This document shows positions 36,152-53,024 of a DNA stretch of 64,000 bases, piece by piece. The notes beneath the pieces are model-generated. The model saw nothing but the letters and a program-made list of their open reading frames with translations, searched no databases and was not told the DNA's origin. Where the stretch lies: the NCBI GenBank assembly GCA_050290145.1, contig JBNKHC010000307.1, positions 2,772 to 66,771 on the forward strand, read 5' to 3'. Both the position numbers and the translations under genes were made by a program. The DNA is from Kiloniellaceae bacterium. Its GTDB lineage: Bacteria > Pseudomonadota > Alphaproteobacteria > Kiloniellales > Kiloniellaceae. Each line of letters begins with the position of its first letter. The stretch's first letter is position 1.

Positions 36152-36544
36152 GGTCCGGCTGTCTTACCTCTCACGTTTTACGACAACTTACTGCCAATTA
36201 TTCATATGCGCGCCCGGCGGGTCGAAACAAGCCCCGGGGCTGCCGGGTTGTGCTGTCCTTGGGCGAAACAATCGCTTCGGAATTACCGCAAAAATAGCGT
36301 TTATCGCGCTTAGGTAGCATCCGAGAAAATCTACATAAGCATCTGATAACTAACAAATCTCTCTCTTGCCTCAAATCCGGCCAATTGCAACTGAGCCGTT
36401 TGGCGGCCCGCTCACGATTAACTGATCCGCTAGAGCCATTGCACTTAAGTGTTTGTTAAACCGAAAAGCGTCGAATCCTCATGCCGGAGGATCAGGACCC
36501 GTCCAGGCCGAGCGTCCGGGCGGACCTCCGCTGAGAGGAATGCG

Positions 36545-37156
36545 ATGTTTGAACTTGCAATGGTTGTACAGGTAGGTCTGGCCTGCTTGACACGTGTCGC
36601 GTGCAGTCTGCGCGCCTTCACGTCGTCAGTCTGGGGCCGCCTGCGCCCGACCCTCGGTCCGCTGCTGCGCGACGAGCGCGGCAACGCGCTGATCGAGTTT
36701 GCGTTCGTGGCGCCGCCCTTCCTGCTGTTGCTGGTCGGCACGCTCGAGGTCTCGGTGATGTTCTTTACCAGCGCCGTCATCGAAGGGGCGACGAAGGAGG
36801 CCGCGCGGCAGATCCGCACCGGCAATATCCAGGCGTCTGCCGATCCGCTGGCCGCCTTCCAGGCTGAGCTCTGCGATTCCCTCTTTGGCGTCATCGACTG
36901 CACCCAGGTGATTTTCAATGTGCAGACCTTCGCGAGCTTCTCGGCAGTCTCGATGCCGATCGAACTGGACCAGGACGGCGAAATCATCAACACGGGATTC
37001 GCCCCGGGTGGCAGCAGCGCCGTTACCGTGGTGCGGGCGATGTACCGCTGGCACTTCATGACACCTCTGATCGAAAACGTGATGCCTTCCGGCCTGGGCG
37101 GTCATCTGCTGATTTCGACAGTCGCCTTTCAGAACGAGCCGTACAACGTGAACTGA
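36545..37156 (+). CDS. TadE/TadF-like pseudopilin
   Basis: Start trimmed to ATG 36545 after a gagagga RBS. TadE N-terminal motif RDERGNALIEFAFVAPPFLLLLVGTLE. Confidence 0.7.
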   Translation: MFELAMVVQVGLACLTRVACSLRAFTSSVWGRLRPTLGPLLRDERGNALIEFAFVAPPFLLLLVGTLEVSVMFFTSAVIEGATKEAARQIRTGNIQASADPLAAFQAELCDSLFGVIDCTQVIFNVQTFASFSAVSMPIELDQDGEIINTGFAPGGSSAVTVVRAMYRWHFMTPLIENVMPSGLGGHLLISTVAFQNEPYNVN

Positions 37157-37159
37157 CCC

Positions 37160-37687
37160 ATGGAACTCGCTCGCTACATATGGCGCGACGAACGCGGCAC
37201 AGCGGTGCTGGAGTTCGGGTTTCTGCTGCCGGTCCTGCTGGTTCTCTTCATCGGCGTGGTCGAGGCGACCAATGTGCTGCGCCTGGACCGCAAGGTGGTG
37301 GCTGCGGCGCAGACGGCGGCAGATCTGGTGACCCAGCGGCGAGAGGTTTCGGATGCGCAGCTGAACGACATTCTGAAGGCGTCGGAGCTGATCTTCGAGC
37401 CTTTCCCGGCCGCCGCTCACAGTGTCGGAATCGCGGCGGTCAGTTTTGACCCGGGCACGGGCAATCCGACGTTGGATTGGACCAAGAGCAAGAACGGCGG
37501 CACCGTCCCCGACGCCCTGACCCTGGCCACGGGGCTCGGCGAACCCGGGGAAGGAGTCGTCATCGTTCGGGTGACCTACAACTATACCCCCATATTCTTC
37601 GACTTCGTGATGGGCGCCACCACCATCGAAGAAACCGCGGTTCTGCGTCCCCGGCGCAGTTCCGTCGTGGAGGGCCCGGGAGGCTGA
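37160..37687 (+). CDS. TadE/TadF-like pseudopilin
   Basis: 175 aa with RDERGTAVLEFGFLLPVLLVLFIGVVE. Confidence 0.75.
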   Translation: MELARYIWRDERGTAVLEFGFLLPVLLVLFIGVVEATNVLRLDRKVVAAAQTAADLVTQRREVSDAQLNDILKASELIFEPFPAAAHSVGIAAVSFDPGTGNPTLDWTKSKNGGTVPDALTLATGLGEPGEGVVIVRVTYNYTPIFFDFVMGATTIEETAVLRPRRSSVVEGPGG

Positions 37688-37707
37688 CGCAGTTGCCCTG
37701 ATTTGGG

Positions 37708-39159
37708 ATGGAGAAACTGGCGATGCGTAGACTAGCAGAAATTGCCCGTGCGGCCATCGGCCACCGCGAGGAAGCGGGGCGCCGGCCGCTGAAGCGAGCC
37801 AAGCAACAAGGCGCGCGGCTGCTGGCCGATGCCCGTGGCAACGTAAGCGTCGTGATCGGCTTCTGCGCAATTGCGCTCGTCGGCGGCGTGGGTATCGCCA
37901 TCGATACCTCGATTGCCTACAACGTGCGCTCGCAGTTGGCTGCGGCGGTGGATGCCGCCGCCTTGGCCGGTGCGCGCGCCTTCGCCAGCCCCAACCGCGA
38001 TACAGACATCCACAACTTCTTCGACGCCAATTTCCAGGAAGGCTACATGGGCTCTGTCCTGCAGCCGCTGGAGATCGCGACGAATAACGAGGCCCGCACC
38101 GTCACGGTAACGGCGCGCGCCGCCATCCCGACGTTCTTCATGAGCGTGCTGGGCACCGACTCCACCGACATCGCCGCTTCCGCCGAGGCGACACTGTCGT
38201 CGCGCGACGTCGAAGTGGCCCTGGTGCTCGACGTCACCGGCTCCATGTCGGGGTCGCGGATCAGTGACCTTCGCGATGCCGCGAACGAGCTGGTCGACAT
38301 TGTCGTGCAGGATCTGCAGGAACCCTTCTATTCGAAGGTGGCACTGGTACCCTATTCGAATTCCGTCAACGTCGGCGGCTATGCCGATGCCGTGCGCGGC
38401 GCAGCGACTGCCGGCACCTGTACCTACCCGACCGCGCCGACCTGCGAGGATTTTGAATTCCCGCGGGCGAGCGACGGCGACATGATCACCTACAGCATTA
38501 CCAACTGCGTGAGCGAGCGCTCGGGCCCGCAGCTCTCAACCGACGCCGCGCCCACCGTGGCGCTGCTGGGCCGGCAGTATTCCCACGCCACCTACAACCC
38601 CTGTCCCGACCCGGTCATTACGCCGCTGTCGAGCAACAAGACCGCGCTGCACACCGCCATCAACGCCTTGGAGGCGTCCGGCTCGACCGCAGGGCAAATC
38701 GGTGTCGCCTGGGGCTGGTACCTAGTCTCGCCGAACTTCGGTTACCTCTGGCCGGCCGCGAGCCAGCCGAAGGACTATGGTGAAATTCACCTGGGCCAAG
38801 AGGTGCTGAAGGTCGTGGTGGTCATGACCGACGGTGACTTCAACACGATCTACGCCGACGGCGTGATCGCCAAGAACTCGACCAGCGGCAGTGGCAGCAA
38901 CAACTACAAGATCAATGAGAACGGCTCGAACGGCAGCGCCTTCGCGCAGGCTGAAGCGCTTTGCGACAACATGAAGGCGGAGGGGGTGATCGTCTACACC
39001 GTCGGCCTCGACGTCGCCAGCACGACCGGCGCCACGGATTTCGTGAACAACTGCGCCACTAACGCCGACCATGTCTATCTGCCGTCCACCGGGACCGAGC
39101 TGAAGCAGGCCTTCCGCGACATCGCGGTGCAGGTTTCGAACCTCCGTATCTCCATGTGA
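37708..39159 (+). CDS. TadG-like pilus-assembly protein with a vWA domain
   Basis: 483 aa with a Tad N-terminal hydrophobic segment (GNVSVVIGFCAIALVGGVGIAID) and a vWA MIDAS motif (LVLDVTGSMSG). Confidence 0.8.
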   Translation: MEKLAMRRLAEIARAAIGHREEAGRRPLKRAKQQGARLLADARGNVSVVIGFCAIALVGGVGIAIDTSIAYNVRSQLAAAVDAAALAGARAFASPNRDTDIHNFFDANFQEGYMGSVLQPLEIATNNEARTVTVTARAAIPTFFMSVLGTDSTDIAASAEATLSSRDVEVALVLDVTGSMSGSRISDLRDAANELVDIVVQDLQEPFYSKVALVPYSNSVNVGGYADAVRGAATAGTCTYPTAPTCEDFEFPRASDGDMITYSITNCVSERSGPQLSTDAAPTVALLGRQYSHATYNPCPDPVITPLSSNKTALHTAINALEASGSTAGQIGVAWGWYLVSPNFGYLWPAASQPKDYGEIHLGQEVLKVVVVMTDGDFNTIYADGVIAKNSTSGSGSNNYKINENGSNGSAFAQAEALCDNMKAEGVIVYTVGLDVASTTGATDFVNNCATNADHVYLPSTGTELKQAFRDIAVQVSNLRISM

Positions 39160-41350: not shown

Positions 41351-42784
41351 ATGACCGACGAGGCCTGTGTTGAGGCTGCCGGCGAAGACGCCGGCGGCCC
41401 GCCTGCGCCTGCGCGCACAGAACCTGCCTTCACCATCCGCAGCGTGCCGCCGCCGACGGCGGAAGAACGACGGGCGCGCCGCGAGGCGATGGAACGCGCT
41501 TTCCGCTTCGGCGCGGCGCCCTACCGCGACGCAGAGGGTAAGGCGCGCTACGTCTTCTTCCGGGAGGCCAACAACGCTCCGGTCGAGGCCTGGACCCGCG
41601 ACCGCGAGGCCAAGCGCGGCTACCGCCGCACCCAGTACGCCCGCAAGGCCGCAGGCCAGATGGCCTGGCATCCCGAAGACCAGATCGAACTCGGGAAAAG
41701 GCTGGGCGTGATCTACCACCGCGAGGGCCGCGGCCCCGAGGGTGCAGCAGAGCGCGGGCTCTATGACGCCATCTGGCGCTACGAGCACGTCTGGGACAGC
41801 TTCACGGTCCCCAGGCGTTACGGCCGCGACATCATCGAGACCGGGCGCATCGCCGCGGTGGCGGAGGAGGAGGCCCGCAGGCTGCAGGCCGAAGATCCCA
41901 GGGCCCAGGGCGGCTTCTGGGTGCGCGACCGCAAGAACCTTGGCCTCATCTACGTCGTCCCCAATCCGGATCCGGCGGCGGCTGGCAGCGAGGAAGTCAT
42001 GGATGGGGGAGGCGATGACGTTCTCATCGGGCAGGCCAACGCACTATCATCGCCACCGCCGCTGCCGAGGCGGAAGCCTATCGCGCCAGGGCGGCCGTCG
42101 CCGTCCCCTTCAGGTGGCATGCCTCCTGCTGCGTCCTCCGGTGGACCAGCGCCAATGCCGGCAACAGCCGACGATTACTTTGCGATCCTCCACAACAATC
42201 TCGCCCCAAGAGAGGGTGGCCGCGCGAACCGTCCGGCTCATGTGGATCCAGGTGGCAAGACGAATAAGGGAATTACGCAGAAAACACTGGATCGCCTGCA
42301 GCGGAACAAGCCGGCCGAATACGGTCACTACCCGACCGATCCCTTCGCGCTGACCGATGACCAGATCGAAACCATCCTCCGCAAGGAGTACTTCGATCCT
42401 CTCCACATGTGGAAGATTGCGCAGATCCCCGATCTTCTCACGCTCGCGCCTCAACTGCCCGATCAGATCTTCGACATCGCGGTGCTGCACGGCGTCGGCT
42501 ACGCCGGACGCATCGTTCAGGAGGCTCTATTTGACGTGATGGGCATTGACCTGAGGACTATCAAGAATGGCTTGCTCGACTACGACGGGATTATCGGGCC
42601 CGCCACACGCAATGCGATTGCGCAGGCAGTGGCTACCGGAAAAGTCGTGGAACTCAATGATCGTATTGTTGACAAACGTCGGGCGGAATTGAGCAGCAAG
42701 GGGCATAAAGTGGACAACCGCGGTTGGTTTCCCAGAGTGGAATCCTTCCGAATCTTGCCGGTGACGTCACCGAATGCACCCTAG
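41351..42784 (+). CDS. Polymorphic phage protein C1: conserved N-domain + RTX-like nonapeptide + Pro-rich linker + GH108 muramidase/PG-binding domain
   Basis: 477 aa. Residues 1-208 are shared with C2 and C4. The C-terminus carries the GH108 signature LAPREGGRANRPAHVDPGGKTNKGIT, followed by a PG_binding_3-like region (DYDGIIGPATRNAI). The 3' half is AT-richer. Confidence 0.8.
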   Translation: MTDEACVEAAGEDAGGPPAPARTEPAFTIRSVPPPTAEERRARREAMERAFRFGAAPYRDAEGKARYVFFREANNAPVEAWTRDREAKRGYRRTQYARKAAGQMAWHPEDQIELGKRLGVIYHREGRGPEGAAERGLYDAIWRYEHVWDSFTVPRRYGRDIIETGRIAAVAEEEARRLQAEDPRAQGGFWVRDRKNLGLIYVVPNPDPAAAGSEEVMDGGGDDVLIGQANALSSPPPLPRRKPIAPGRPSPSPSGGMPPAASSGGPAPMPATADDYFAILHNNLAPREGGRANRPAHVDPGGKTNKGITQKTLDRLQRNKPAEYGHYPTDPFALTDDQIETILRKEYFDPLHMWKIAQIPDLLTLAPQLPDQIFDIAVLHGVGYAGRIVQEALFDVMGIDLRTIKNGLLDYDGIIGPATRNAIAQAVATGKVVELNDRIVDKRRAELSSKGHKVDNRGWFPRVESFRILPVTSPNAP

Positions 42785-42949
42785 AGGGAATCAGAGCTCA
42801 AGCTTATTGCACTACTTGCTGGCTATCAGTTGCAGGGCCCCTGTCAAGCTGGCGACGGCCCTTACAGATGTACGCTGATGCCAAAACCATAAGCGGACGA
42901 AATCCGTGAGCCAAATCGTTCAGAACCCAAGCTTCGCTTCCATAAAGCA

Positions 42950-43402
42950 TCAGTAGCGATCCTTTGTCTCTGCTTCGATATCTTTTAAGATCCTCGCTAG
43001 GAGGTCTATGTAGCTCTCAATGTATCGCATCGAAGGCAGCAGGCCACAGGAGCTAGGGCAATAGCGGTTTTCGGCATAGATCCGGTAATACAGTTCATCA
43101 TGAACCTTTCGGAGAGCATGAAGATGTTCTTCAGCACGATCTGTGAACTCCGGGAGGAGCCAGCCGCGGATTTTGGCTAGCACGGCCTTTTCCATGCATA
43201 TGGCCGTGAGGTCCAGTCCATCTCCGTAGGCCGCGGCGGAGCCCGTGCCACGCAATTCTTCTGACCTTTGCCAGCAGTCTTCGATGATCGGATCTGCATC
43301 GAAGGGCTCGAAGGGCAAGGAAACGATGTCACCACCAGCCAAGACGGGTGTGACAGTTAGCAGGTAGGCAAGAGCCGGTACGAAGAGCTTTATGGCTTTC
43401 AT
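42950..43402 (-). CDS. Secreted 4-Cys helical protein, candidate immunity/inhibitor for the C1 muramidase
   Basis: Start trimmed to ATG 43402 after a ggggaggaa RBS. Signal peptide MKAIKLFVPALAYLLTVTPVLAGG. AT-rich and convergent with C1. Loose resemblance to DUF1311/LprI lysozyme inhibitors. Confidence 0.55.
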   Translation of the reverse strand: MKAIKLFVPALAYLLTVTPVLAGGDIVSLPFEPFDADPIIEDCWQRSEELRGTGSAAAYGDGLDLTAICMEKAVLAKIRGWLLPEFTDRAEEHLHALRKVHDELYYRIYAENRYCPSSCGLLPSMRYIESYIDLLARILKDIEAETKDRY

Positions 43403-43522
43403 GATTTCCTCCCCTGAAGCGATCAACCGCAGCGTGCACCGCAATTACGGCGATCTTTGGGCATTGGCGCGCTCGTTCGTCACAAACTGATCCTTCTTCT
43501 TCCCGCCTGAGGCGACTTTTTC

Positions 43523-45058
43523 ATGACCGACGATGCCTTCCCGGAGGCGGCCGGCGCAGATGCCGGCGGCCCGCTTGCGCCTGCGCGCGCAGTACCGGAA
43601 TTCACGATCCGCAAGGTGCCGCCGCCGACGGCGGTGGAGCGCCAGGCGCGCCGCGAGGCGATGGAGCGGGCGATCCGCTTCGGCGCGGTGCCCTACCGCG
43701 ACGCAGAGGGTAAGGCGCGCTATGTCTTCTTCCGGGAGGCCAACAACGCGCCGGTCGAGGCCTGGCGGCGCGACCGTGAGGCCAAGCGCGGCTATCGCCG
43801 TACCCAATATGCCCGGAAGGCGGCGGGGCAGATGGCCTGGCACCCGGAGGACCAGATCGAACTCGCGAAACGACTGGGCGTGATCTACCACCGCGAGGGA
43901 CGCAGCGCCGAGGGTGCCGCCGAGCGTGGCCTCTACGACGCCATCTGGCGCTACGAACACGTCTACGACAGCTTCACCGTCCCCAGGCGTTACGGGCGCG
44001 ACATCATCGAGACCGGGCGCATCGCCGCGGTGGCCGAGGAGGAGGCGCGCAAGCTGCAGGCCGAAGACCCTAAGGCCACTGACGGGTTCTGGGTGCGCGA
44101 CCGCAAGAACAACGGCCTCATCTATGTCGTCCCCAATTCAGACCCGGAGGCAGGCGCCGATGCCGGGTCCGCCGAGCGAGCGGCAACGCCCGAGGATGAG
44201 ATCCTCGAGGGCGGAGGCGGCGAAGGCGTCCTGCCGGGCCAGGACGATGCCGCGTCCGAGCCGGCGCAAAATCCTTCAAAGGAGCAAGAAGAATCCGCTG
44301 TCGAGCAGACGCTGCACTATCCTGACATCTCCTTGCCACCGCCGAACAAGACGTGGAAGACAGGAAAAGAGCCCCCACCGGATCGAGAGCAATTGCCGGT
44401 CATTAACATGGAAAAGGATAGAATTGAAAATATCCTCAGCAATGACCCTGCCATTTTCGAGATCACCGACTGGAGCAAAGCGATCCCGAGCGCTCCGATC
44501 TACGAACTCGGACCATATGGTGCCTGGGCTGTTTGGTTATACCAAGATCTGATTGAGTTTGAGGCAGAACGTCAAGGTGTCGATCCGAACTTGATCAAGG
44601 CCACAATCTATTTCGAGAATGCGAGAGGAGGCTCCTATGGACATCTCTCTGAAGCTCTCGACCGGTCTGACTCGATCCTGCCGATGAACATCAAGCAGGA
44701 AACCTGGGGAGGCCTTCTCGGGCCTGATGCGGACTTCTCGGATCCGCTATTGAATATCAGGGCAGGCACGATGCTTTTGCGCCGCATACAAGAGCGAGTT
44801 GCTGCGCCTACTGTGGCCAAAGTGTCTTCCATATATCACATCGCTGGCAGAGAAAAAGTTCACGACAACGGTGCTCGAGTAAGTCAATTCTATGCACAGA
44901 GGCCGTGGGAAAACCTGCTACGTGCGTTGGACGAGCCCAACCTGAAGATTCCGCGCCAAGCCAGGTCTTTCTGGGAGAAGTTGCGGCAGCGTCGCGAAGA
45001 GCTGCGTAGGCGGTTGCTCGTGGAAAAGATGAAAATCGCAAGATCAGGAGACCGGTGA
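43523..45058 (+). CDS. Polymorphic phage protein C2: conserved N-domain + RTX-like nonapeptide + SLT-type lytic transglycosylase domain
   Basis: 511 aa. Residues 1-208 are shared with C1 and C4. The C-terminus has an SLT/goose-lysozyme pattern (IYFENARGGSYG...ILPMNIKQETW...NIRAGTMLLRR). The 3' half is AT-richer. Confidence 0.8.
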   Translation: MTDDAFPEAAGADAGGPLAPARAVPEFTIRKVPPPTAVERQARREAMERAIRFGAVPYRDAEGKARYVFFREANNAPVEAWRRDREAKRGYRRTQYARKAAGQMAWHPEDQIELAKRLGVIYHREGRSAEGAAERGLYDAIWRYEHVYDSFTVPRRYGRDIIETGRIAAVAEEEARKLQAEDPKATDGFWVRDRKNNGLIYVVPNSDPEAGADAGSAERAATPEDEILEGGGGEGVLPGQDDAASEPAQNPSKEQEESAVEQTLHYPDISLPPPNKTWKTGKEPPPDREQLPVINMEKDRIENILSNDPAIFEITDWSKAIPSAPIYELGPYGAWAVWLYQDLIEFEAERQGVDPNLIKATIYFENARGGSYGHLSEALDRSDSILPMNIKQETWGGLLGPDADFSDPLLNIRAGTMLLRRIQERVAAPTVAKVSSIYHIAGREKVHDNGARVSQFYAQRPWENLLRALDEPNLKIPRQARSFWEKLRQRREELRRRLLVEKMKIARSGDR

Positions 45059-45133
45059 GCCATCCGGCAGCTCTAAAGCAAATTCTTGCCATTATCTGCC
45101 GTCATTTTTCCATGCGCGTGGCGCATTGTTGCC

Positions 45134-45616
45134 ATGGCAGCCGGAAAGATTGACGGACTTGATCGGCAGCTGCGGGGCCAGGCGGTAGGTGATATGGCTA
45201 TTTTCTTGATGATGTTCCTCTATGTTGCCTGGTACGTCGCATGGGGAGGAACCTTCATGGCCTCATGCACCATGGGAGATGCCAAGTCGCTCGGTGGTGC
45301 CATGATCTTATCCTTTCTGATTTTCTTGGCTCCAATCACAACTTTGCCAAAGCATGGTCTGAGTATGTTCGGGCTGCTGCTGGCGGTTCCACTTATTTTT
45401 CTGCTCTTGCGGCAGGGAGTGTGGGCCGTTGAGTTGTTTGTCGTTGTGAGCATCGAGGGTCGCAGTGCCTGCAGCCTGATGATGGGGGATGATTATGGCG
45501 TAGCAAAGGGCGGATGGCTCGAGCATTCCTATGCCTTCTACTACTTCATTACCAGTGTGGCCTCTCTTTGGGCGATCGCATCTTCCCACCGACGATATCG
45601 CCGGGAGGCGACGTGA
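45134..45616 (+). CDS. Small polytopic membrane protein, candidate immunity partner of C2
   Basis: ORF 45086..45616. The start is uncertain (ATG 45134 or 45194). It has 4-5 hydrophobic helices, is AT-rich, and lies directly downstream of C2. Confidence 0.5.
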   Translation: MAAGKIDGLDRQLRGQAVGDMAIFLMMFLYVAWYVAWGGTFMASCTMGDAKSLGGAMILSFLIFLAPITTLPKHGLSMFGLLLAVPLIFLLLRQGVWAVELFVVVSIEGRSACSLMMGDDYGVAKGGWLEHSYAFYYFITSVASLWAIASSHRRYRREAT

Positions 45617-45713: not shown

Positions 45714-45959
45714 ATGACCGACGATGCCTCCCCAAAAGCTGCGGGGGAAGCTGCCGGCGAGGCTGCCGTCGGCCCGCTTGCGCCTGCGCGAACAGAACCT
45801 GTCTTCACCATCCGCAGCGTGCCGCCGCCGACGGCGGAAGAACGACGGGCGCGCCGCGCCGGCTTCAAGACCGATCCGACCGGCATCAACTTCGATCTCA
45901 GCGAACTACCGGCCCGCTGTTCTTCAAGTCGAACTAGGAGAGGGGTGTGCCCCGGTTAA
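45714..45959 (+). pseudogene. C3: internally deleted, frameshifted remnant of a C4-like gene
   Basis: The first ~47 aa match the family N-terminus. It then jumps to ..TGINFDLSELP.., matching the last ~20 aa of C4 (DINFDLSQLTGPLFFKAN) with a 1-nt indel. The same leader sequence as C1 and C2 lies upstream. Confidence 0.65.
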
Positions 45960-46040
45960 CCCAGGGAGGTTAGTACTCCGTTGGGCCTACGCACGATGGG
46001 CCTACGTTTAGTCGTCCCACCTTGGGAGCGAGGCACCTGG
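45884..46040 (+). repeat. Direct repeat copy A (~160 bp): 3' end of the C-gene plus a conserved downstream non-coding segment
   Basis: Aligns by eye with 50581..50743 with few mismatches. Contains a ggggtgtgcccc hairpin and the internal direct repeat tgggcctacg-cacga-tgggcctacg. Confidence 0.85.
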
Positions 46041-46135
46041 ACACCATAGGCGCCGCCGGCGGGCCGGTTCAGCCGACGCTTGCGGCCTTTGATGAGTCCC
46101 GGCAACGCCGACGCCTTCTCAGCCGAGTAGCTTCG

Positions 46136-46693
46136 ATGACCGACCACGAATTCTGCGCTGGCGCGCCGTTGCGCGCGCTTGCCGTATTCCATGACCAGGG
46201 GGCCGGCTTCTGGCCGCGCTTCTTCGGGCGACTAGGCTTTCGCCACTGCTTCGTCGCGGTAAACGACGGCCGTGCGTGGATCGTGATCGACCCCTGCAGC
46301 GACGGCACGTGGATCAGCGCGGACGTCGCCGGGGCGGTGGATCTGGCCGCACACTATCGTGGGCTCGGCTGCAGTGTCGTCGAGACAGCCGTCGCGCAAG
46401 GCGGCCGCCGCTACGGTCTGCCCTGGGCCTTCACCTGCGTCGAGGCGGTCAAACGCATCCTCCATGTCCACGGCTGGTGGCTCTGGACGCCCTATCAACT
46501 CTATCGATGCCTGGAGAAAGAAAACCATGGGAAGCATCTTCAGCCCGCCCAAGCCGAAAGCCCCGCCGCCGCCACCACCCCCGCCGGATCCAGCGACGGA
46601 CCCCGCCATCGAGGAAGCACGCAAGCGCGAGCGGGAGGCGGCGAAGCGCCGGCGCGGCCGCCAGGCGACGATCCTGACCAGCGGCCTGGGTGA
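46136..46693 (+). CDS. Hypothetical phage protein (possible permuted papain-like fold)
   Basis: Start chosen at ATG 46136 (MTDHEF). His...Asp...Cys order (FRHCFVAV..VIDP..FTCVEAVKRIL). Its Pro/Ala/Gly-rich tail overlaps the next gene in another frame. Confidence 0.45.
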   Translation: MTDHEFCAGAPLRALAVFHDQGAGFWPRFFGRLGFRHCFVAVNDGRAWIVIDPCSDGTWISADVAGAVDLAAHYRGLGCSVVETAVAQGGRRYGLPWAFTCVEAVKRILHVHGWWLWTPYQLYRCLEKENHGKHLQPAQAESPAAATTPAGSSDGPRHRGSTQARAGGGEAPARPPGDDPDQRPG

Positions 46694-46769: not shown

Positions 46770-48410
46770 ATGCCTCGCGAAATTGATGATCTGCTGGCGC
46801 GCCACAAGCGCCTGAAGGACCAGCGCCGCGTCTGGGAAAGCCACTGGCAGGAGTTGGCGGAGGTGATGCTGCCGCGCCGTGCCGACTTCACAACGCAAAA
46901 GACGGACGGCGAACGGCGGACCCAGCACCTTTTCGACGGCACACCGATGCTGGCGCGGCGCGGCCTGGCGGCGGCCATCGACGGCCTGCTGAAGCCCAAG
47001 ACCGCCCGTTGGTTCCGGGTAAAGACGATGGACGATGCCCTGGGCGAGGACGAGGGCGTGAAGCGCTGGCTGGAGATCGCCGAGGAGCGGCTCTACCGCG
47101 CCATCTACAGCCGCCGCGCCCGCTTCATCCAGCGCTCCGGCGAGGTGGACGAGGACCTGGTGACCTTCGGCAGCGGCGTGCTGTTCATCGGCGAGGGGCG
47201 CGAGCTGAACCGCCTGTTGTTTCGCTCCTACCACCTGAAGGACGTGGTGCTGAGCGAAAACGCCGACGGCGAGATTGACAGCCTGTTCATCACCCTGCGC
47301 CTGACGGCGCGGCACGCGGCGCAGCGTTTCGGCGAGGCGGCGCTGGGGAAGGACACCCGCGAGGCGCTGAAGGCGGGGGAGGCGGACAAGGAGTTCACCT
47401 TCCTGCAGGCGGTCATGCCGCGCGAAGAGCGCGACCGAAGGCGCCGTGACAACAAGAACCTGCCCTATGCTTCGCTCATCGTCGACGTGCAGTCCGAGCA
47501 CCTGGTGAGCGAAAGCGGCTACCACGAGTTTCCCTTCGCGGTGCCGCGCTGGGACACGAGCTCGGGCGAGGTCTACGGCCGCTCCCCCGGCATGATCGCC
47601 CTGCCGGACGCCAACACCCTGCAGCAGATGGGCAAGACCCTGCTGGTCGCCGGGCACAAGGCGGTCGACCCGCCTCTGCTGGTGGGCGACGATTCCGTGC
47701 TGGGCACGCCGAAGACCTTCCCCGGCGGCATCACCACCTTCGACATGCAGGCGGCGCGCGACCTGGGCCGCATTCCCATCGAGCCGCTGCAGACCGGTTT
47801 CAACCTGCCGCTGGGTCGCGAGATGCAGAAGGACGCCCGCGACCAGATCTGGGCCGCCTTCTTCCGCAACGTGCTGCAGCTGCCCGTCGACGCGCCGCGC
47901 ATGACGGCGACGGAGGTCCTGGAGCGCAAGGAGGAGTTCATCCGCACCATCGGACCGGTCTTCGGGCGGCTGGAGAGCGACTACATCGGCCAGGTGGTGG
48001 AGCGCAGCTTCAACATCCTGCTGCGCGCCGGCGCCTTTCCGCAGCCGCCGGAGATCCTGCAGGGCCAGGAGGTGGTCTTCGACTACGCCAGCCCGGTGGA
48101 GCAGGCGCGCCGCCAGATCGAGGCGGCGGGCGCGGCGCGCTCGGTGGAGCTGCTGGCGCCCTTCGTGCAGGCCGACCCGAGCATCCTCGACAACTTCGAC
48201 GGCGACGCCATCGCCCGCGATACGCCGGAAATCTTCGGCATGCCGCAGCGCTGGTTGCGTCCCAAGGAGGAGGTCGACGGCCGCCGCGAAGGCCGCCAGC
48301 AGGCCGACCAGGCAGACGCCCTGCTGCAAGGGGCGGCGGAGGCCGCCGGCGGCGGCGCAGGGGGAGGCGGCGTGCTGCAACAGCTTCTGCAAGGGGGCGC
48401 ACCGCAGTGA
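46770..48410 (+). CDS. Portal (head-to-tail connector) protein, T7 gp8/BPP-1-type
   Basis: 546 aa. Position and sequence (LLARHKRLKDQRRVWESHWQELAEVMLPRR...) fit the podoviral head-tail connector family. Confidence 0.85.
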   Translation: MPREIDDLLARHKRLKDQRRVWESHWQELAEVMLPRRADFTTQKTDGERRTQHLFDGTPMLARRGLAAAIDGLLKPKTARWFRVKTMDDALGEDEGVKRWLEIAEERLYRAIYSRRARFIQRSGEVDEDLVTFGSGVLFIGEGRELNRLLFRSYHLKDVVLSENADGEIDSLFITLRLTARHAAQRFGEAALGKDTREALKAGEADKEFTFLQAVMPREERDRRRRDNKNLPYASLIVDVQSEHLVSESGYHEFPFAVPRWDTSSGEVYGRSPGMIALPDANTLQQMGKTLLVAGHKAVDPPLLVGDDSVLGTPKTFPGGITTFDMQAARDLGRIPIEPLQTGFNLPLGREMQKDARDQIWAAFFRNVLQLPVDAPRMTATEVLERKEEFIRTIGPVFGRLESDYIGQVVERSFNILLRAGAFPQPPEILQGQEVVFDYASPVEQARRQIEAAGAARSVELLAPFVQADPSILDNFDGDAIARDTPEIFGMPQRWLRPKEEVDGRREGRQQADQADALLQGAAEAAGGGAGGGGVLQQLLQGGAPQ

Positions 48411-48742
48411 CCCCGATGCTGCGTCTGTTCCGCAAGGGACCGCCCGGCCGGCCGGACCCCGACGCCTTCTTCGCGGCGCTGCGCCGGGCCTCGCTGGGCG
48501 AGCGCTACACCGCCATCGACCGCTACCGCGACTTCCGCGCCGTGTTCTTCGGGGAGTCGACGCCGCAGCAGGGCAAGCGGGTGCTGTGGCAGATCCTGGA
48601 ATGGTGCCGCCTTTTCCGTCCGGTGAGCGCGCCGGGCGACCCGCACGAGACCTACCGCCGTGACGGCGAGCGCAACATCGGCCTCAAGATCTTCATGACC
48701 CTGAACGCCGAACCGGACGAGCCGATTCCGCCCCAGGAGTAA
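48407..48742 (+). CDS. Small conserved post-portal protein (Bbp19-like, from memory)
   Basis: 111 aa overlapping the portal stop. Has the ...RRDGERNIGLKIFMTL.. motif. Confidence 0.4.
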   Translation: MTPMLRLFRKGPPGRPDPDAFFAALRRASLGERYTAIDRYRDFRAVFFGESTPQQGKRVLWQILEWCRLFRPVSAPGDPHETYRRDGERNIGLKIFMTLNAEPDEPIPPQE

Positions 48743-48745
48743 GCC

Positions 48746-50635
48746 ATGACCGACGATGCCTCCCCGGAGGCTGCCGGCGAGACCGCCGGCGGCCCGCTTC
48801 CTGCTGCGCGCGATATGCGCTTCGTCATCCGCAAGGTACCGCCGCCGACGGCGGCGGAACGCCAGGCGCGGCGCGACGCCATGGAACGGGCGATCCGGTT
48901 CGGCGCGGCGCCCTACCGCGACGGCGATGGCAAGTCGCGCTACGTCTTCTTCCGGGAAGCCAACAACGCGCCGGTCGAGGCCTGGCGGCGCGACCGAGAG
49001 GCCAAGCGCCGCTATCGCCGCACGCAGCAGGCGCGTAAGGCCGCGGGTCAGATGGCCTGGCATCCTGAGGACCAGATCGAGCTCGCCAAACGCCTGGGGG
49101 CGATCTACCACCGCGAGGGCCGCAGTGTTGAGGGGGCTGCCGAACGCGGGCTCTACGACGCCATCTGGCGCTACGAGCACGTCTTCGACAGCTTCACGGT
49201 GCCCAGGCGCTACGGCCGCGACATCATCGACACCGGACGCATCGCCGCGGTGGCCGAGGAAGAGGGGCGCAGGTTGCAGGCCGAAGACCCCAGGGCCAAG
49301 GGTGGCTTCTGGGTGCGGGACCGCAAGAACAACGGCCTCATCTATGTGGTGCCCAATCCCGATCCCGAGATGGCGGCAGGGGATGGATTCTTTGCGGGCG
49401 AGGGCGCGGACAGCCTGGCCGGTGATGCCGGCATCGACAGCGCCCTGGAGCAGTTCTATCCCGCCGACGATTTTGATATCCCGACCGAGAGCTATGACCC
49501 CTCCGGGTTCTACCAGCTCGAAGAGGCGGAAGACGGCAGCGGCGTTTTGGTCCTGACCCCCAAAGGCTTCGGCGAGGGCGGTATGCAAGCCGCCGCCGAA
49601 AGACGCCGCGCGGGCCGCTACGAGATCGCTCAGACGACCCTGGACGACGTCTTCGACGGCATCGTCGCGGTGCTGGACAGCGGGCGCGACGCGGACGATC
49701 CGGCCTGGCAACAGCTTGCCCGCATCGCGGCGGAAGTGGCCCCCGGCACCGGCAACGTACTCAGCTCGCGCGAGGCCTACATCGCCTTCAAGGCCGCCGC
49801 GACGGCGATGGAGAAGGGCGACTGGGGCGAGGCGCTGCTGAACGGCGGCGAGGCGCTGTTCAACGCCGCCGGCGCGGTGCCGGCCTTCGGCGAGCTGCTG
49901 CGTCTCGGCAAGGGGGCGGTGAAGGTCGCCAACCTGCTATATCAGGTGGGCCGAACTACCGGCGCCCGTCCGGTGGTGGCCGCCATGGCCAGAAGCGCCG
50001 AAGAACTGGCGCCGCTGGTCAAGCGGTCAAAGCAGAGCCGGGGGCCCTTCAAGGCACTGGAGAAGACGCCGGGCGGCAACGAGGCCGCGCGCCTGGTGGA
50101 CCTGCGCCAGAAGGTGCGGCGCCGCCACTCCGGCGGCTTCTTCGAGCAGTCAGCCGAGCGCGCCTTCGAGGCGACGCGCTTTCCACCGCGCAACGCCATT
50201 GCCATAGAGCGGCGCGGGCTGGCGGCGACGGACATGGCGGTGACAGAGGCACTGTACGGCGGGAAGAGCGTGGTGCGTGACGCCATGTATCGTCATGGGG
50301 CCGGTCCCATCACTTTCTACTTCGGCGAGGCCGGCAACGCGGCGAAGAAGTACAGGGGCGGCAGCGGCTTGGCCCACATCATCGCCAAGCACGGCCCCGA
50401 GGTGATGCCCGAGGTCATCGAGACGATTTCGAAGGGGAGGCATACATTTGTAGGGAGTGGCGTCAATCAACGAATGATCATTCAACACAATGATCAGATC
50501 GTGATCCTCTCCCACTTCAATTTTGGCAGCGGCAAGCACGAGTCTTGGCTACTGACCGGATACCAAAAGGGCGATACCGACATCAACTTCGATCTCAGCC
50601 AGCTCACGGGGCCGCTGTTCTTCAAAGCGAACTAG
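48746..50635 (+). CDS. Polymorphic phage protein C4: conserved N-domain + RTX-like repeat + PT-TG-like helical region + C-terminal nuclease-like module
   Basis: 629 aa. Residues 1-207 are shared with C1 and C2. Residues ~325-400 (VAPGTGNVLSSREAYIAF...GEALLNGGEALFNAAGAVPAFG) resemble a pre-toxin TG domain. Residues ~455-629 carry GSGLAHIIAKHGPE...SWLLTGYQ, reminiscent of Barnase/EndoU/ColE5-like modules of phage polyvalent proteins. Confidence 0.75.
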   Translation: MTDDASPEAAGETAGGPLPAARDMRFVIRKVPPPTAAERQARRDAMERAIRFGAAPYRDGDGKSRYVFFREANNAPVEAWRRDREAKRRYRRTQQARKAAGQMAWHPEDQIELAKRLGAIYHREGRSVEGAAERGLYDAIWRYEHVFDSFTVPRRYGRDIIDTGRIAAVAEEEGRRLQAEDPRAKGGFWVRDRKNNGLIYVVPNPDPEMAAGDGFFAGEGADSLAGDAGIDSALEQFYPADDFDIPTESYDPSGFYQLEEAEDGSGVLVLTPKGFGEGGMQAAAERRRAGRYEIAQTTLDDVFDGIVAVLDSGRDADDPAWQQLARIAAEVAPGTGNVLSSREAYIAFKAAATAMEKGDWGEALLNGGEALFNAAGAVPAFGELLRLGKGAVKVANLLYQVGRTTGARPVVAAMARSAEELAPLVKRSKQSRGPFKALEKTPGGNEAARLVDLRQKVRRRHSGGFFEQSAERAFEATRFPPRNAIAIERRGLAATDMAVTEALYGGKSVVRDAMYRHGAGPITFYFGEAGNAAKKYRGGSGLAHIIAKHGPEVMPEVIETISKGRHTFVGSGVNQRMIIQHNDQIVILSHFNFGSGKHESWLLTGYQKGDTDINFDLSQLTGPLFFKAN

Positions 50636-50743
50636 AGGGGAAGGGGTGTGCCCCGGTGAACCCAGGGAGGCTTTTGACTCCGTTGGGCCTACGCACGATG
50701 GGCCTACGTCTTAGCTGTCCCACCGTGGGAGCGAGGCACTTGG
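50581..50743 (+). repeat. Direct repeat copy B (~160 bp), partner of 45884..46040
   Basis: Covers the last 18 codons of C4 plus ~105 nt downstream. Same hairpin and tgggcctacg duplication as copy A. Confidence 0.85.
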
Positions 50744-50783
50744 TGAAGATAGAGAGCGCCGCCGCAACCTTCAACACTACCGC

Positions 50784-51281
50784 TCAGCGGTAGACATAGC
50801 GCAGCTGGCGCTCGCCGCGCAGGGGGCAGGGCGGCCCCAGACCGTCGAAGCGGAAGCCGAGGCGCTCCAGCCACTCCCTGCTGGGGGCATGGTCGGGGTG
50901 GGCTTCCACCACAATGCTGTGCAGACCGTAGTGGCGTATGAGCCGCGGCAAGGCGCGGGCGAAAGCGCGGAACAGGCTCTGCCGGGTGCGGCGGCAGAGC
51001 GGCGCCGAAAGGAAGGCCCAGGCCTTGGCCTGCAGGCCCTCGATCACCAGACCGACGCAGGCCACGACCTCGCCGCTCCACAGGAGGGTGAGGGCAGGCC
51101 CGTTACGATAGTAGGCCATCGCGAAGCGCTGCAGGGAGCGGCGCAGCATCGGCGCGGGCTCCAACTCGGCAAGGTGGGTGTTGCTGAAGGGAACGAGGCC
51201 GAGCGCCGCACCCGCCGCCGCCGCGGATTGGGCCGCCTTGCGCCTCTGGCCCGTGGGAACCTGGCTTTCCGTCGTCTGCAT
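50784..51281 (-). CDS. GNAT-like small protein, paralog 1 (convergent with C4)
   Basis: 165 aa. Collinear with 58748..59179 (VPF..HLA.L.P...A.AY..GPA.TL....C.GL.IEG....AWAFLS...EAH....R.WL.RLGF). Confidence 0.55.
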   Translation of the reverse strand: MQTTESQVPTGQRRKAAQSAAAAGAALGLVPFSNTHLAELEPAPMLRRSLQRFAMAYYRNGPALTLLWSGEVVACVGLVIEGLQAKAWAFLSAPLCRRTRQSLFRAFARALPRLIRHYGLHSIVVEAHPDHAPSREWLERLGFRFDGLGPPCPLRGERQLRYVYR

Positions 51282-52367: not shown

Positions 52368-52673
52368 CTAATTGCCTTTCAGTCTGGTCGATGGCGTGGC
52401 CCCGGACCTCGAGTCCGCCTTTTTGCAGTGCACCACGTTGTCCTTCATGGAGCACTCGGCCTTGATCAGACCGGGGCCGCAGTTCAGCCCTTGCGGTCCG
52501 GAATTGCAGTTGGTGCAGCCGCCGGCGGGACACCACTTGCAGCAGGCGGGAAACTCGGTCTGCCCGGGCGGCGGCGCCTTTAACATCACGGGGCCTTCTT
52601 GGGCCTGAGCGACATTGGTCAGGAACATGAGCGCGCCGATGAGAGCGGCGCAGAGTCCGATTCTGATAGGCAT
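52368..52673 (-). CDS. Secreted 8-Cys mini-protein, paralog 1
   Basis: 101 aa with signal peptide ...LTNVAQAQ. Core FPACCKWCPAGGCTNCN...LNCGPGLIKAECSMKDNVVHC. ATG with an aagga RBS. Confidence 0.65.
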   Translation of the reverse strand: MPIRIGLCAALIGALMFLTNVAQAQEGPVMLKAPPPGQTEFPACCKWCPAGGCTNCNSGPQGLNCGPGLIKAECSMKDNVVHCKKADSRSGATPSTRLKGN

Positions 52674-52706
52674 GGTTCGGTCCTTGTCAGTGCGGCCAGA
52701 CGACGG

Positions 52707-53024
52707 TCAGCCGTCGTCGCGGATGCAGGTCGCCTTGTTGTCGACGACCTGGCACTTTGCCTTGATCAGGCCGGAGCCGCAGTTGAGCTGTGGCGTGTTC
52801 GGATAGGCGTTGCAACCGGTGCAGCCGCCTGCCGGACAGGCCGAGCAGCAGGCCTCGAAGCGCTGCTTGCCTGGTGGGACCGACTTCAGCGACGAAGGGC
52901 CGGTCGCCGTCGGGCGCGGCGGTTCGGCCGGCGAGGTGTTGCTCTTGAGCTGCGCCTGGGCGGCGCCGCCAATGGCCATGGCAGTGCAGAGAAAAGCAAT
53001 GGAAATTAGATGCTTGAGGCTCAT
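52707..53024 (-). CDS. Secreted 8-Cys mini-protein, paralog 2
   Basis: 105 aa with signal peptide ...IGGAAQAQ. Core FEACCSACPAGGCTGCN...LNCGSGLIKAKCQVVDNKATC. Strong gggagga RBS. Confidence 0.65.
   Translation of the reverse strand: MSLKHLISIAFLCTAMAIGGAAQAQLKSNTSPAEPPRPTATGPSSLKSVPPGKQRFEACCSACPAGGCTGCNAYPNTPQLNCGSGLIKAKCQVVDNKATCIRDDG

Follow-up and report, generated by a model that had tools for sequence, protein, structure and literature searches.

A predicted PBECR1 nuclease trailed by a conserved structured RNA: a probable polymorphic effector allele in a podovirus-like element of a marine alphaproteobacterium

MuF polymorphic toxins of temperate phages (Jamet et al. 2017, PMC5576092; Bxa/Apk2, PMC11699363) consist of a conserved phage-associated N-terminus fused to variable C-terminal toxin domains. 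Their genes are located in the DNA-packaging/head module near the portal gene, delivery by the phage particle has been proposed, and most of the cargos are accompanied by small downstream immunity open reading frames (ORFs). This study concerns C4, a gene located within a 64,000-nucleotide stretch of DNA (hereafter the window) of a Kiloniellaceae bacterium (assembly GCA_050290145.1, contig JBNKHC010000307.1, positions 2,772 to 66,771 of the forward strand). C4 carries a predicted nuclease module of the PBECR1 family behind an N-terminal domain (N-domain) that it shares with sister genes, and it is probably one allele of a polymorphic effector family of swappable cassettes. The features listed above for MuF toxins recur in this family, the small immunity-like ORFs being found in the sister cassettes of C4. 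In contrast to the MuF toxins, which belong to siphoviruses or myoviruses of Firmicutes or Bacteroidales, the family resides in a podovirus-like prophage of a marine alphaproteobacterium, its carrier domain is not MuF, several paralogues occupy three slots of each element, and the PBECR1 allele C4 is not accompanied by an immunity ORF.

Three other kinds of system are comparable in part. In type III toxin-antitoxin systems (ToxIN, CptIN) the gene of an endoribonuclease (endoRNase) toxin lies beside a tandem structured non-coding RNA, and there is no protein antitoxin. The C4 locus recalls them in its endoRNase gene (predicted here) placed by tandem structured RNA copies, its lack of a protein antitoxin and its phage-related context, whereas the fold of C4 is BECR rather than ToxN/AbiQ, its RNA forms ~100-nt units inside roughly 200-nt repeats (1–3 copies, located downstream and not upstream), and processing of this RNA or inhibition by it is only conjectural. 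Polymorphic toxin systems, reportedly surveyed by Zhang et al. in 2012, are said to include arrays of orphan CdiA-CT and Rhs-CT modules. Like these, the C4 family combines a constant N-terminus, a junction motif, swapped C-terminal toxins and orphan or remnant modules that keep recombination homology; unlike these, it has no secretion-system trafficking domain, and to the 5′ homology it adds a 3′ homology composed of a coding tail and a structured RNA. Finally, the transglycosylase domain of T7 gp16, T4 Alt and the T4 internal proteins are virion-borne enzymes ejected into the infected cell, and peptidoglycan (PG) hydrolases are among such enzymes. PG hydrolases also occur among the cargos of the C4 family (whose carriage in the particle we infer), but here the enzymes are interchangeable cargos on a small dedicated carrier, they have immunity-like partners, and the genes of the usual internal core proteins are present separately in the same element.

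Iyer et al. (2017, PMC5512222) described PBECR domains in phage proteins that are polyvalent or fused to MuF or to the portal. C4 resembles these proteins in its PBECR1 family, its His/Thr configuration, its location among virion genes and its predicted injection with the DNA. The polyvalent proteins comprise 2–15 domains, whereas C4 is a simple three-part protein with a new carrier domain; its conserved C-terminal tail and trailing structured RNA are not described in the available text of that paper.

The C4 protein is composed of the N-domain, a junction motif, a helical middle region, the PBECR1 module and a conserved tail. The corresponding DNA features (window coordinates, strand) are as follows:

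48746..50635, + strand: C4 gene (from the ORF list; orthologues at 57–85% identity)
48746..49390, + strand: shared N-domain, aa 1–215, a carrier/trafficking domain by inference (78–85% identical to C1 and C2)
49397..49438, + strand: junction motif GEGADSLAGDAGID, consensus hhxGGxGExxhxGQAD (position conserved across cargo types)
49449..50110, + strand: middle region, aa ~235–455, mostly helical, with PGTG at 49742–49753 (shared with proteins of nucleotidyltransferase-like cargo)
50282..50572, + strand: PBECR1 predicted endoRNase core, aa 513–609 (Pfam; invariant residues; secondary structure of the AlphaFold2 (AF2) model)
50375–50377, 50390–50392 and 50555–50557, + strand: PBECR1 key residues H544, H549 and T/S604 (alignment of 13 modules)
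50579..50635, + strand: conserved C-terminal tail DINFDLSQLTGPLFFKAN and stop codon (DINFD invariant; tail remnants before nearly every RNA copy)
50642..50744, + strand: structured RNA motif, outer stem plus two hairpins, 27 bp (consensus folds, covariation and covariance model searches)

The 629-aa ORF is real, with an ATG start codon and an AGGAG ribosome-binding site within the 3′ end of the upstream gene, and its orthologues are found in Pelagibius/Kiloniellaceae. The strings quoted in the first-pass annotation were retrieved where expected in the protein: GEGADSLAGDAGID (aa 218), PGTG (aa 333), AHIIAKHG (aa 543) and WLLTGY (aa 601).

The first-pass annotation of this DNA had ascribed a nuclease-like module to the C-terminus of C4, and profile searches bore this out: Pfam PBECR1 (PF18809, “phage-Barnase-EndoU-ColicinE5/D-RelE like nuclease 1”) matched aa 513–609 (E=1.4e-8; 35.6 bits versus a cut-off of 27.6), the isolated C-terminal module scored 38.3 bits (E=2e-9), and the PF18809 annotation was found precomputed on seven C4 orthologues. 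The two His residues of AHIIAKHG, which the same annotation had singled out, are H544 and H549; both are invariant in 13 family modules (46–79% identity), in which residue 604 is either Thr or Ser and the DINFD motif of the tail is likewise invariant. In the AF2 model of C4, a helix (541–563) containing H544 and H549 is followed by four strands, the fourth of which (599–608) carries T604. This His/Thr pattern agrees with the PBECR residue definition given in PMC5512222. On these sequence and model data, C4 is predicted to end in a phage-type nuclease with a BECR fold (PBECR1), a putative metal-independent endoRNase whose His/Thr active-site configuration is intact. Other searches added nothing: profile searches of the N-domain and of the PBECR1 module against PDB sequences returned only spurious matches (nucleoporin, histone H4), Foldseek with the full-length AF2 model (pLDDT 55) returned only noise, and C4 had no match in NCBIfam or, by tblastn, in 50,697 phage records.

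The comparative data obtained from a set of 4–10 related Pelagibius/Kiloniellaceae loci (numbered L001 onwards) place C4 in a family of composite genes. Four copies of the N-terminal block (C1, C2, C3 and C4) are present in the window, where the sister features are:

41351..45616: sister cassettes C1/C2 with their partners (Pfam and PHROG hits; recurrent pairings)
41351–42784: C1, cargo GH108 + PG_binding_3 (Pfam/PHROG)
42950–43444, − strand: C1 partner, convergent, secreted (pairing recurs in other loci)
43523–45058: C2, SLT-like cargo with no Pfam hit (PHROG)
45086–45616: C2 partner, polytopic membrane protein (pairing recurs in other loci)
45714..46041, + strand: C3 remnant (45714–45959) and second RNA copy (45940–46041)

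Alignment revealed that the 215-aa N-domain is common to C1–C4 and 28 database proteins, and that at least five different C-termini follow it. The cargo types are (i) PBECR1, found behind two kinds of middle region, (ii) GH108, (iii) SLT-like, (iv) a cargo with the pattern RGSAxTG...ASDFDxAxVS, which has no Pfam hit and which we take to be nucleotidyltransferase-like (NTase-like), and (v) a glycine-zipper membrane-like tail, for which there are weak Pfam hints only. The NTase-like cargo was seen in proteins P0006, P0011, P0018, P0020 and P0023 and in loci L001 (7362–9674) and L002 (6024–8328 and 10001–12342). Orphan or truncated PBECR1 modules and remnants were found near full-length genes: C3 in the window, a 222-aa orphan in L002, a 446-aa protein in L003 and remnants in L001. 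A constant N-terminus with variable C-termini and such orphan modules are the marks of polymorphic toxins, and in this respect the comparative data, together with the partner genes of the other cargos, upheld the polymorphic toxin logic that had been proposed for C4.

The boundary between the constant and variable parts is occupied by the junction motif, whose position is kept across the cargo types of the family. The middle region of C4 is 51–66% identical to those of P0006 and a 644-aa protein of L001 up to approximately aa 414–434, beyond which the cargos diverge. Since it is shared with proteins of different cargo, this region behaves like a pre-toxin region; no relatives of it were found outside the clade. 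The more specific labels proposed in the first-pass annotation did not hold. For the RTX-like repeat, no strict GGxGxDxUx unit was found in C4, a relaxed core match, present once, was also seen in 16% of shuffled sequences, and HemolysinCabind gave no hit at E<=0.1 or E<=10. For the PT-TG-like (pre-toxin TG) region, the middle region, submitted to hmmscan in three cuts, had no match at E<=10, and a six-frame whole-genome search with PF14449 (E<=10) left this contig without a hit, whereas the cut-off was exceeded in the Bacillus subtilis control.

Most of the alternative cargos are accompanied by a partner gene. GH108 is invariably paired with a convergent gene for a 150–164-aa secreted protein, seen in four loci, with 31–35% identity between the loci; examples of this immunity-like pairing for a muramidase are the window (41351–43444), L001 (12311–14175, where an in-frame TAG interrupts the GH108 cassette) and L003 (14933–16865). 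The SLT-like cargo is paired with a polytopic membrane protein, of which one genome contains six tandem paralogues; these lie directly 5′ of the PBECR1 gene in a Pelagibius chromosome (L027, 14216–17249), in a stretch that looks like an immunity-gene array. The NTase-like cargo is followed by a tightly coupled ORF of 138–160 aa. These partner genes, which track their cargos, are candidate immunity genes.

PBECR1 modules are different: at 10 non-redundant 3′ ends they are never followed by a partner ORF, and the next gene is always a backbone gene. In keeping with an earlier observation, the ORF list contains no co-directional ORF after C4. Two ORFs were considered as immunity genes and rejected. 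The product of the convergent ORF 50784–51281, previously suggested as the immunity candidate, is encoded by a backbone gene that is present with or without the PBECR1 cassette: its homologues occupy the same backbone place in L001, L002, L007, L026, L027 and L028, and they stay when the adjacent cassette slot (slot B, see below) is empty (L001/L026) or holds another cargo. ORF 46022–46693 is also a backbone gene.

What does follow every PBECR1 module is an RNA-like element with a core of ~100 nt. It was found 3′ of 10/10 PBECR1 ends, approximately 5–15 nt past the stop codon, in 1–3 tandem copies, and its two copies in the window are located behind C4 (50642–50744) and behind C3 (45940–46041). 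The first-pass annotation had mentioned a conserved non-coding repeat merely as context; the repeat is present, but it is rather the most distinctive feature of the locus. In three further arrays, located behind other cassettes, a short piece of the PBECR1 tail (...PLFFK.N stop) has persisted before the RNA. Tail and RNA therefore form one unit and, on this sequence evidence, appear to travel together; the recombination breakpoints are located inside the tail. C3, in which the first ~47 codons of the N-domain are joined directly to the PBECR1 tail and then to the RNA, is the extreme case of this recombination unit. It seems likely that homologous recombination between the N-domain, as a 5′ anchor, and the tail+RNA unit, as a 3′ anchor, swaps cargos among the three slots. 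In the spacers between tandem RNA copies (L027; L006, L007), 21-codon mini-ORFs were noted, which start with ATG GTG and end with a decayed tail peptide (...LRGPMFFNPN stop).

The consensus fold that RNAalifold predicted from 19 distinct copies has 27 pairs, arranged as two hairpins inside an outer stem. In the alignment 97.9% of cells were paired, and six pairs had changed on both sides, compared to 0.6 in shuffles and 0–2 in slid controls; with an effective number of 1.13, the aligned sequences offer little diversity. Each of the three helices contains compensatory changes; variation is found in the loops, whereas hardly any is seen in the stems and at the junction nucleotides. Where a pair has changed on one side only, the result is a G-U wobble on the + strand, and this speaks for an RNA that is transcribed together with the toxin gene. 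The element is also better conserved than the coding core next to it, with a mean nucleotide identity of 86% versus 67%. A peptide-coding reading was rejected, since the indels that distinguish the loops of the copies do not come in multiples of three, as was a genome-wide repeat resembling repetitive extragenic palindromic (REP) sequences, the host genome containing only the two copies of the window. Rfam returned nothing relevant at E<=1, ARAGORN detected no tRNA-like gene at the element, and no consensus of a sigma-70 promoter or intrinsic terminator was found near it. A search for RNA sequencing runs that contain the locus found none.

Among 19 genomes of the genus, capsid genes were found in 11, the N-domain in nine and PBECR1 in five. 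Covariance model (CM) searches detected the RNA in five genomes of the genus, exactly the 5/5 with PBECR1, and in 0/4 of those having N-domain cassettes but not PBECR1. Another family of the order gave a weak CM match (G013, E ~5e-6), which has an unrelated context and was treated as a false positive: the hits recorded there as L020 and L024 (G013:C1, ~1116000–1116190; E ~5e-6 and 5e-5) adjoin an RTX-repeat protein and an amidohydrolase and are both probably false.

This RNA may be a regulator or antitoxin, a 3′-end element or a recombination anchor. According to one explanation, which we regard as possible if somewhat doubtful, the element is a DNA-level recombination anchor or a hitch-hiking 3′ untranslated region, and C4 simply goes unprotected, since the producing cell is doomed by the time of late expression. 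The breakpoints inside the tail seen in C3 and in the three arrays behind other cassettes agree with this, as do the variable tandem copy number (1 to 3) and the single-sequence folding energies, which are not significant. A mere anchor is harder to reconcile with compensatory changes in three helices, with one-sided changes limited to wobbles specific to the + strand, with loops that vary beside near-invariant stems and junction nucleotides, and with conservation exceeding that of the neighbouring coding sequence. In another explanation the tail+RNA unit would be the cognate neutraliser or controller of the PBECR1 RNase, the RNA taking the place of the immunity protein in a type III-like arrangement with a BECR-fold toxin. 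We consider this role unlikely; if it were correct, the RNA might enter the particle together with the toxin, or the toxin might cut it upon delivery.

The close coupling of the RNA to the PBECR1 stop codon also bears on the possibility that C4 acts in the producing cell, as a RegB-like RNase that processes phage or host transcripts late in the cycle, the tail+RNA unit being a cis target or autoregulatory site rather than an antidote. The BECR-fold RegB cleaves phage mRNAs, and mRNA targets have been raised for PBECR domains (PMC5512222); the RNA starts within ~5–15 nt of every PBECR1 stop and is duplicated with the tail as a unit, and PBECR1 has no immunity protein. Such a role would leave the muramidase, NTase-like and membrane-active cargos, borne with immunity-like partners on the same N-domain, unexplained, and the backbone of PBECR1-free elements is otherwise identical, which means that the RNase is dispensable to the phage programme. 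An intracellular RNase is thus considered quite improbable.

The N-domain proved to be confined to one lineage. A word-indexed search of 5.8 billion proteins retrieved 28 relatives, all from Pelagibius or Kiloniellaceae, and an exhaustive phmmer search against 1.84 billion representatives gave only 32 hits, all in one clade, with an identity of at least 46%. No Pfam (E<=10), PHROG or PDB sequence match was obtained, and Foldseek of the N-domain model (pLDDT 68.7, pTM 0.61) against PDB and BFVD returned nothing below E=0.1. Moreover, a six-frame genome search did not detect PF04233 (Phage_Mu_F), and hhalign of the N-domain with the phage Mu F family profile gave a probability of 5.8%. For these reasons the N-domain is regarded as an orphan, lineage-specific carrier domain and not MuF; it would recruit the protein into the particle. 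Direct reading of the translation (no predictor was run) showed neither a signal peptide nor a transmembrane segment in C4.

The cassettes are inserted into a recognizable phage backbone, one and the same in all the related loci; its S24 repressor suggests SOS control. The order is: S24/HTH repressor (at the left end of the element), DUF6362, YccV-like gene, two TadE genes, TadG, a small gene, large terminase, slot A, small genes, portal, Bbp19-like gene, slot B, reverse GNAT-like gene, scaffold, slot C, capsid, tail tubular A and B, internal proteins and tail fibre. Cassettes thus lie between terminase and portal (A), after the Bbp19-like gene (B) or between scaffold and capsid (C). The location of C4 just behind the portal and a small post-portal gene, noted earlier as typical of virion-delivered effectors, is correct insofar as the portal and Bbp19-like genes are directly upstream, but it is not diagnostic, since cassettes also occupy the other two slots. 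Judged by the portal, the HTVC010P-type pelagiphages (~40% identity) are the closest phages known. HTVC010P has the same order from terminase to tubular B with slots A, B and C empty, and the N-domain genes are therefore accessory cassettes inserted in a podoviral late operon. The host element appears rather likely to be temperate or prophage-like, with a head/tail module syntenic with that of HTVC010P-type podoviruses.

The reading that we favour, as reasonably probable, builds on the observed domain identities, family structure, linkage and RNA covariation: C4 would be a late-expressed effector whose N-domain routes it to the particle and whose PBECR1 module cuts RNA in the recipient, and it would represent one recombination-shuffled allele, with packaging, delivery and toxicity as the inferred steps. 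C4 would be made late, be packaged in the particle or carried with it, and enter the next cell together with the DNA, where the RNase would cleave host RNA (tRNA, mRNA or defence RNA). The other cargos would be neutralised by their adjacent protein partners, the PBECR1 cargo being tied instead to the trailing three-helix RNA, which in all likelihood exerts control over this cargo or forms a functional part of it, and the immunity-like partners would protect lysogens and new lysogens from sibling particles. Delivery by the particle is suggested by the PG-hydrolase cargos on the same carrier, which are what virion-borne ejection proteins carry.

The location of the cassettes in three intergenic slots of the late operon, and not in the post-portal position alone, would also suit proteins that are not packaged at all: soluble late products freed by prophage lysis, acting as bacteriocin-like toxins or lysis helpers, with partners that protect sibling lysogens. 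The empty slots of HTVC010P fit such release, as does the secreted or membrane nature of the partners of the PG-hydrolase cargos, and the GH108 cargo resembles holin-associated muramidases. For cytoplasm-acting RNase or NTase cargos, however, release by lysis would require receptor-binding and translocation domains, of which none is detectable; the N-domain is short and basic, with no signal peptide by the direct reading mentioned above, and the presence of one N-domain on all cargos argues for a common trafficking route. Release by lysis is accordingly judged rather unlikely.

Several points weigh against the proposed delivery of C4 by the particle and the role assigned to its parts. Concerning the proteins, confidence in the AF2 models is low to moderate (pLDDT 55 and 69), the RNase function of PBECR domains is predicted rather than demonstrated in the available text of Iyer et al. 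2017 (PMC5512222), no known head or ejection protein is detectably related to the N-domain, whose presence in the virion is presumed, and cassettes of a late operon could equally be released by lysis. As regards the RNA, the folding energies of single sequences are no better than those of shuffles (z = -0.33 and +0.77), and its co-occurrence with PBECR1 could be explained by tight physical linkage alone. As for the element, the stretch from the repressor to ~6 kb beyond the tail fibre in the one complete relative contained no recognisable integrase or replication genes, and IMG/VR scans for the N-domain and for the RNA returned nothing; the element may for these reasons be defective or domesticated. 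The near-complete relative is L029 (G109, 2700000–2719999), in which lysis genes were not recognised over the same span either. Positions 1–33500 of the window contain host genes (topA, dprA, trehalose genes), and the same trehalose flank is present in a second genome, which, together with the lack of recognised integrase, replication and lysis genes, makes a domesticated or defective particle-producing element possible. Such a state would leave the domain-level conclusions unchanged.

The immediate neighbours of C4 in the window are:

46770..48742, + strand: portal gene (46770–48410) and Bbp19-like gene (48407–48742) (Pfam)
50784..51281, − strand: weakly GNAT-like convergent gene of the backbone (Pfam GNAT E=0.009; same position in other loci)

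The T7-type portal gene (Pfam Head-tail_con, E=3e-128) is overlapped at its 3′ end by the Bbp19-like gene (Phage_Bbp19, E=2e-14), and C4 starts 4 nt past the stop codon of the latter. C4 is translationally coupled to the portal and Bbp19-like genes. As previously noted, the end of C4 is AT-richer: the GC content falls from ~0.70 to 0.56 over 50300–50750. Downstream, the repeated non-coding segment is followed by the convergent ORF, whose presence agrees with the first description, although the GNAT label is weak, the match falling short of the Pfam cut-off. The product of this ORF has a weak PHROG match to an internal virion protein (phrog_308, E=0.007), and a forward paralogue lies just past tail tubular B, at approximately the place of T7 gp13 (L002, 18621–19043; L027, 2699–3148). 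The segment that separates the RNA motif from the stop codon of the convergent gene contains a 7-bp hairpin (CTACCGC TCA GCGGTAG, 50757–50775), a possible bidirectional terminator, although it has no T-run.

Two other groups of genes in the element were noted. Two TadE-like and one TadG-like pseudopilin genes lie between the S24 repressor and terminase genes (36449–39159); their position is conserved in every related element (L001, L003, L004), and they therefore belong to the element and not to the host, whose Tad pilus they may modify. Between the scaffold and capsid genes (52368–53024, − strand), two tandem paralogous genes encode Cys-rich secreted mini-proteins; since no homologue was found in the related loci compared, they are taken as a window-specific insertion in slot C.

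Phage-borne polymorphic toxins have so far been defined by the MuF carrier. The C4 locus follows the same logic with an unrelated carrier in a podovirus-like prophage of a marine alphaproteobacterium, which suggests that this strategy evolved more than once. The C4 family, in which a single carrier is combined with at least five cargos and their matching partner genes, constitutes a compact natural experiment; since the system is carried by a cultured type strain, Pelagibius litoralis DSM 21314, it is testable. The RNase cargo alone is devoid of a protein partner and is tied instead to a conserved, covariation-supported RNA that has no Rfam family. If this RNA controls the RNase, polymorphic toxins would be linked to the biology of RNA antitoxins, and if it is the neutraliser, it would represent a new RNA family and a new mode of immunity for polymorphic toxins.

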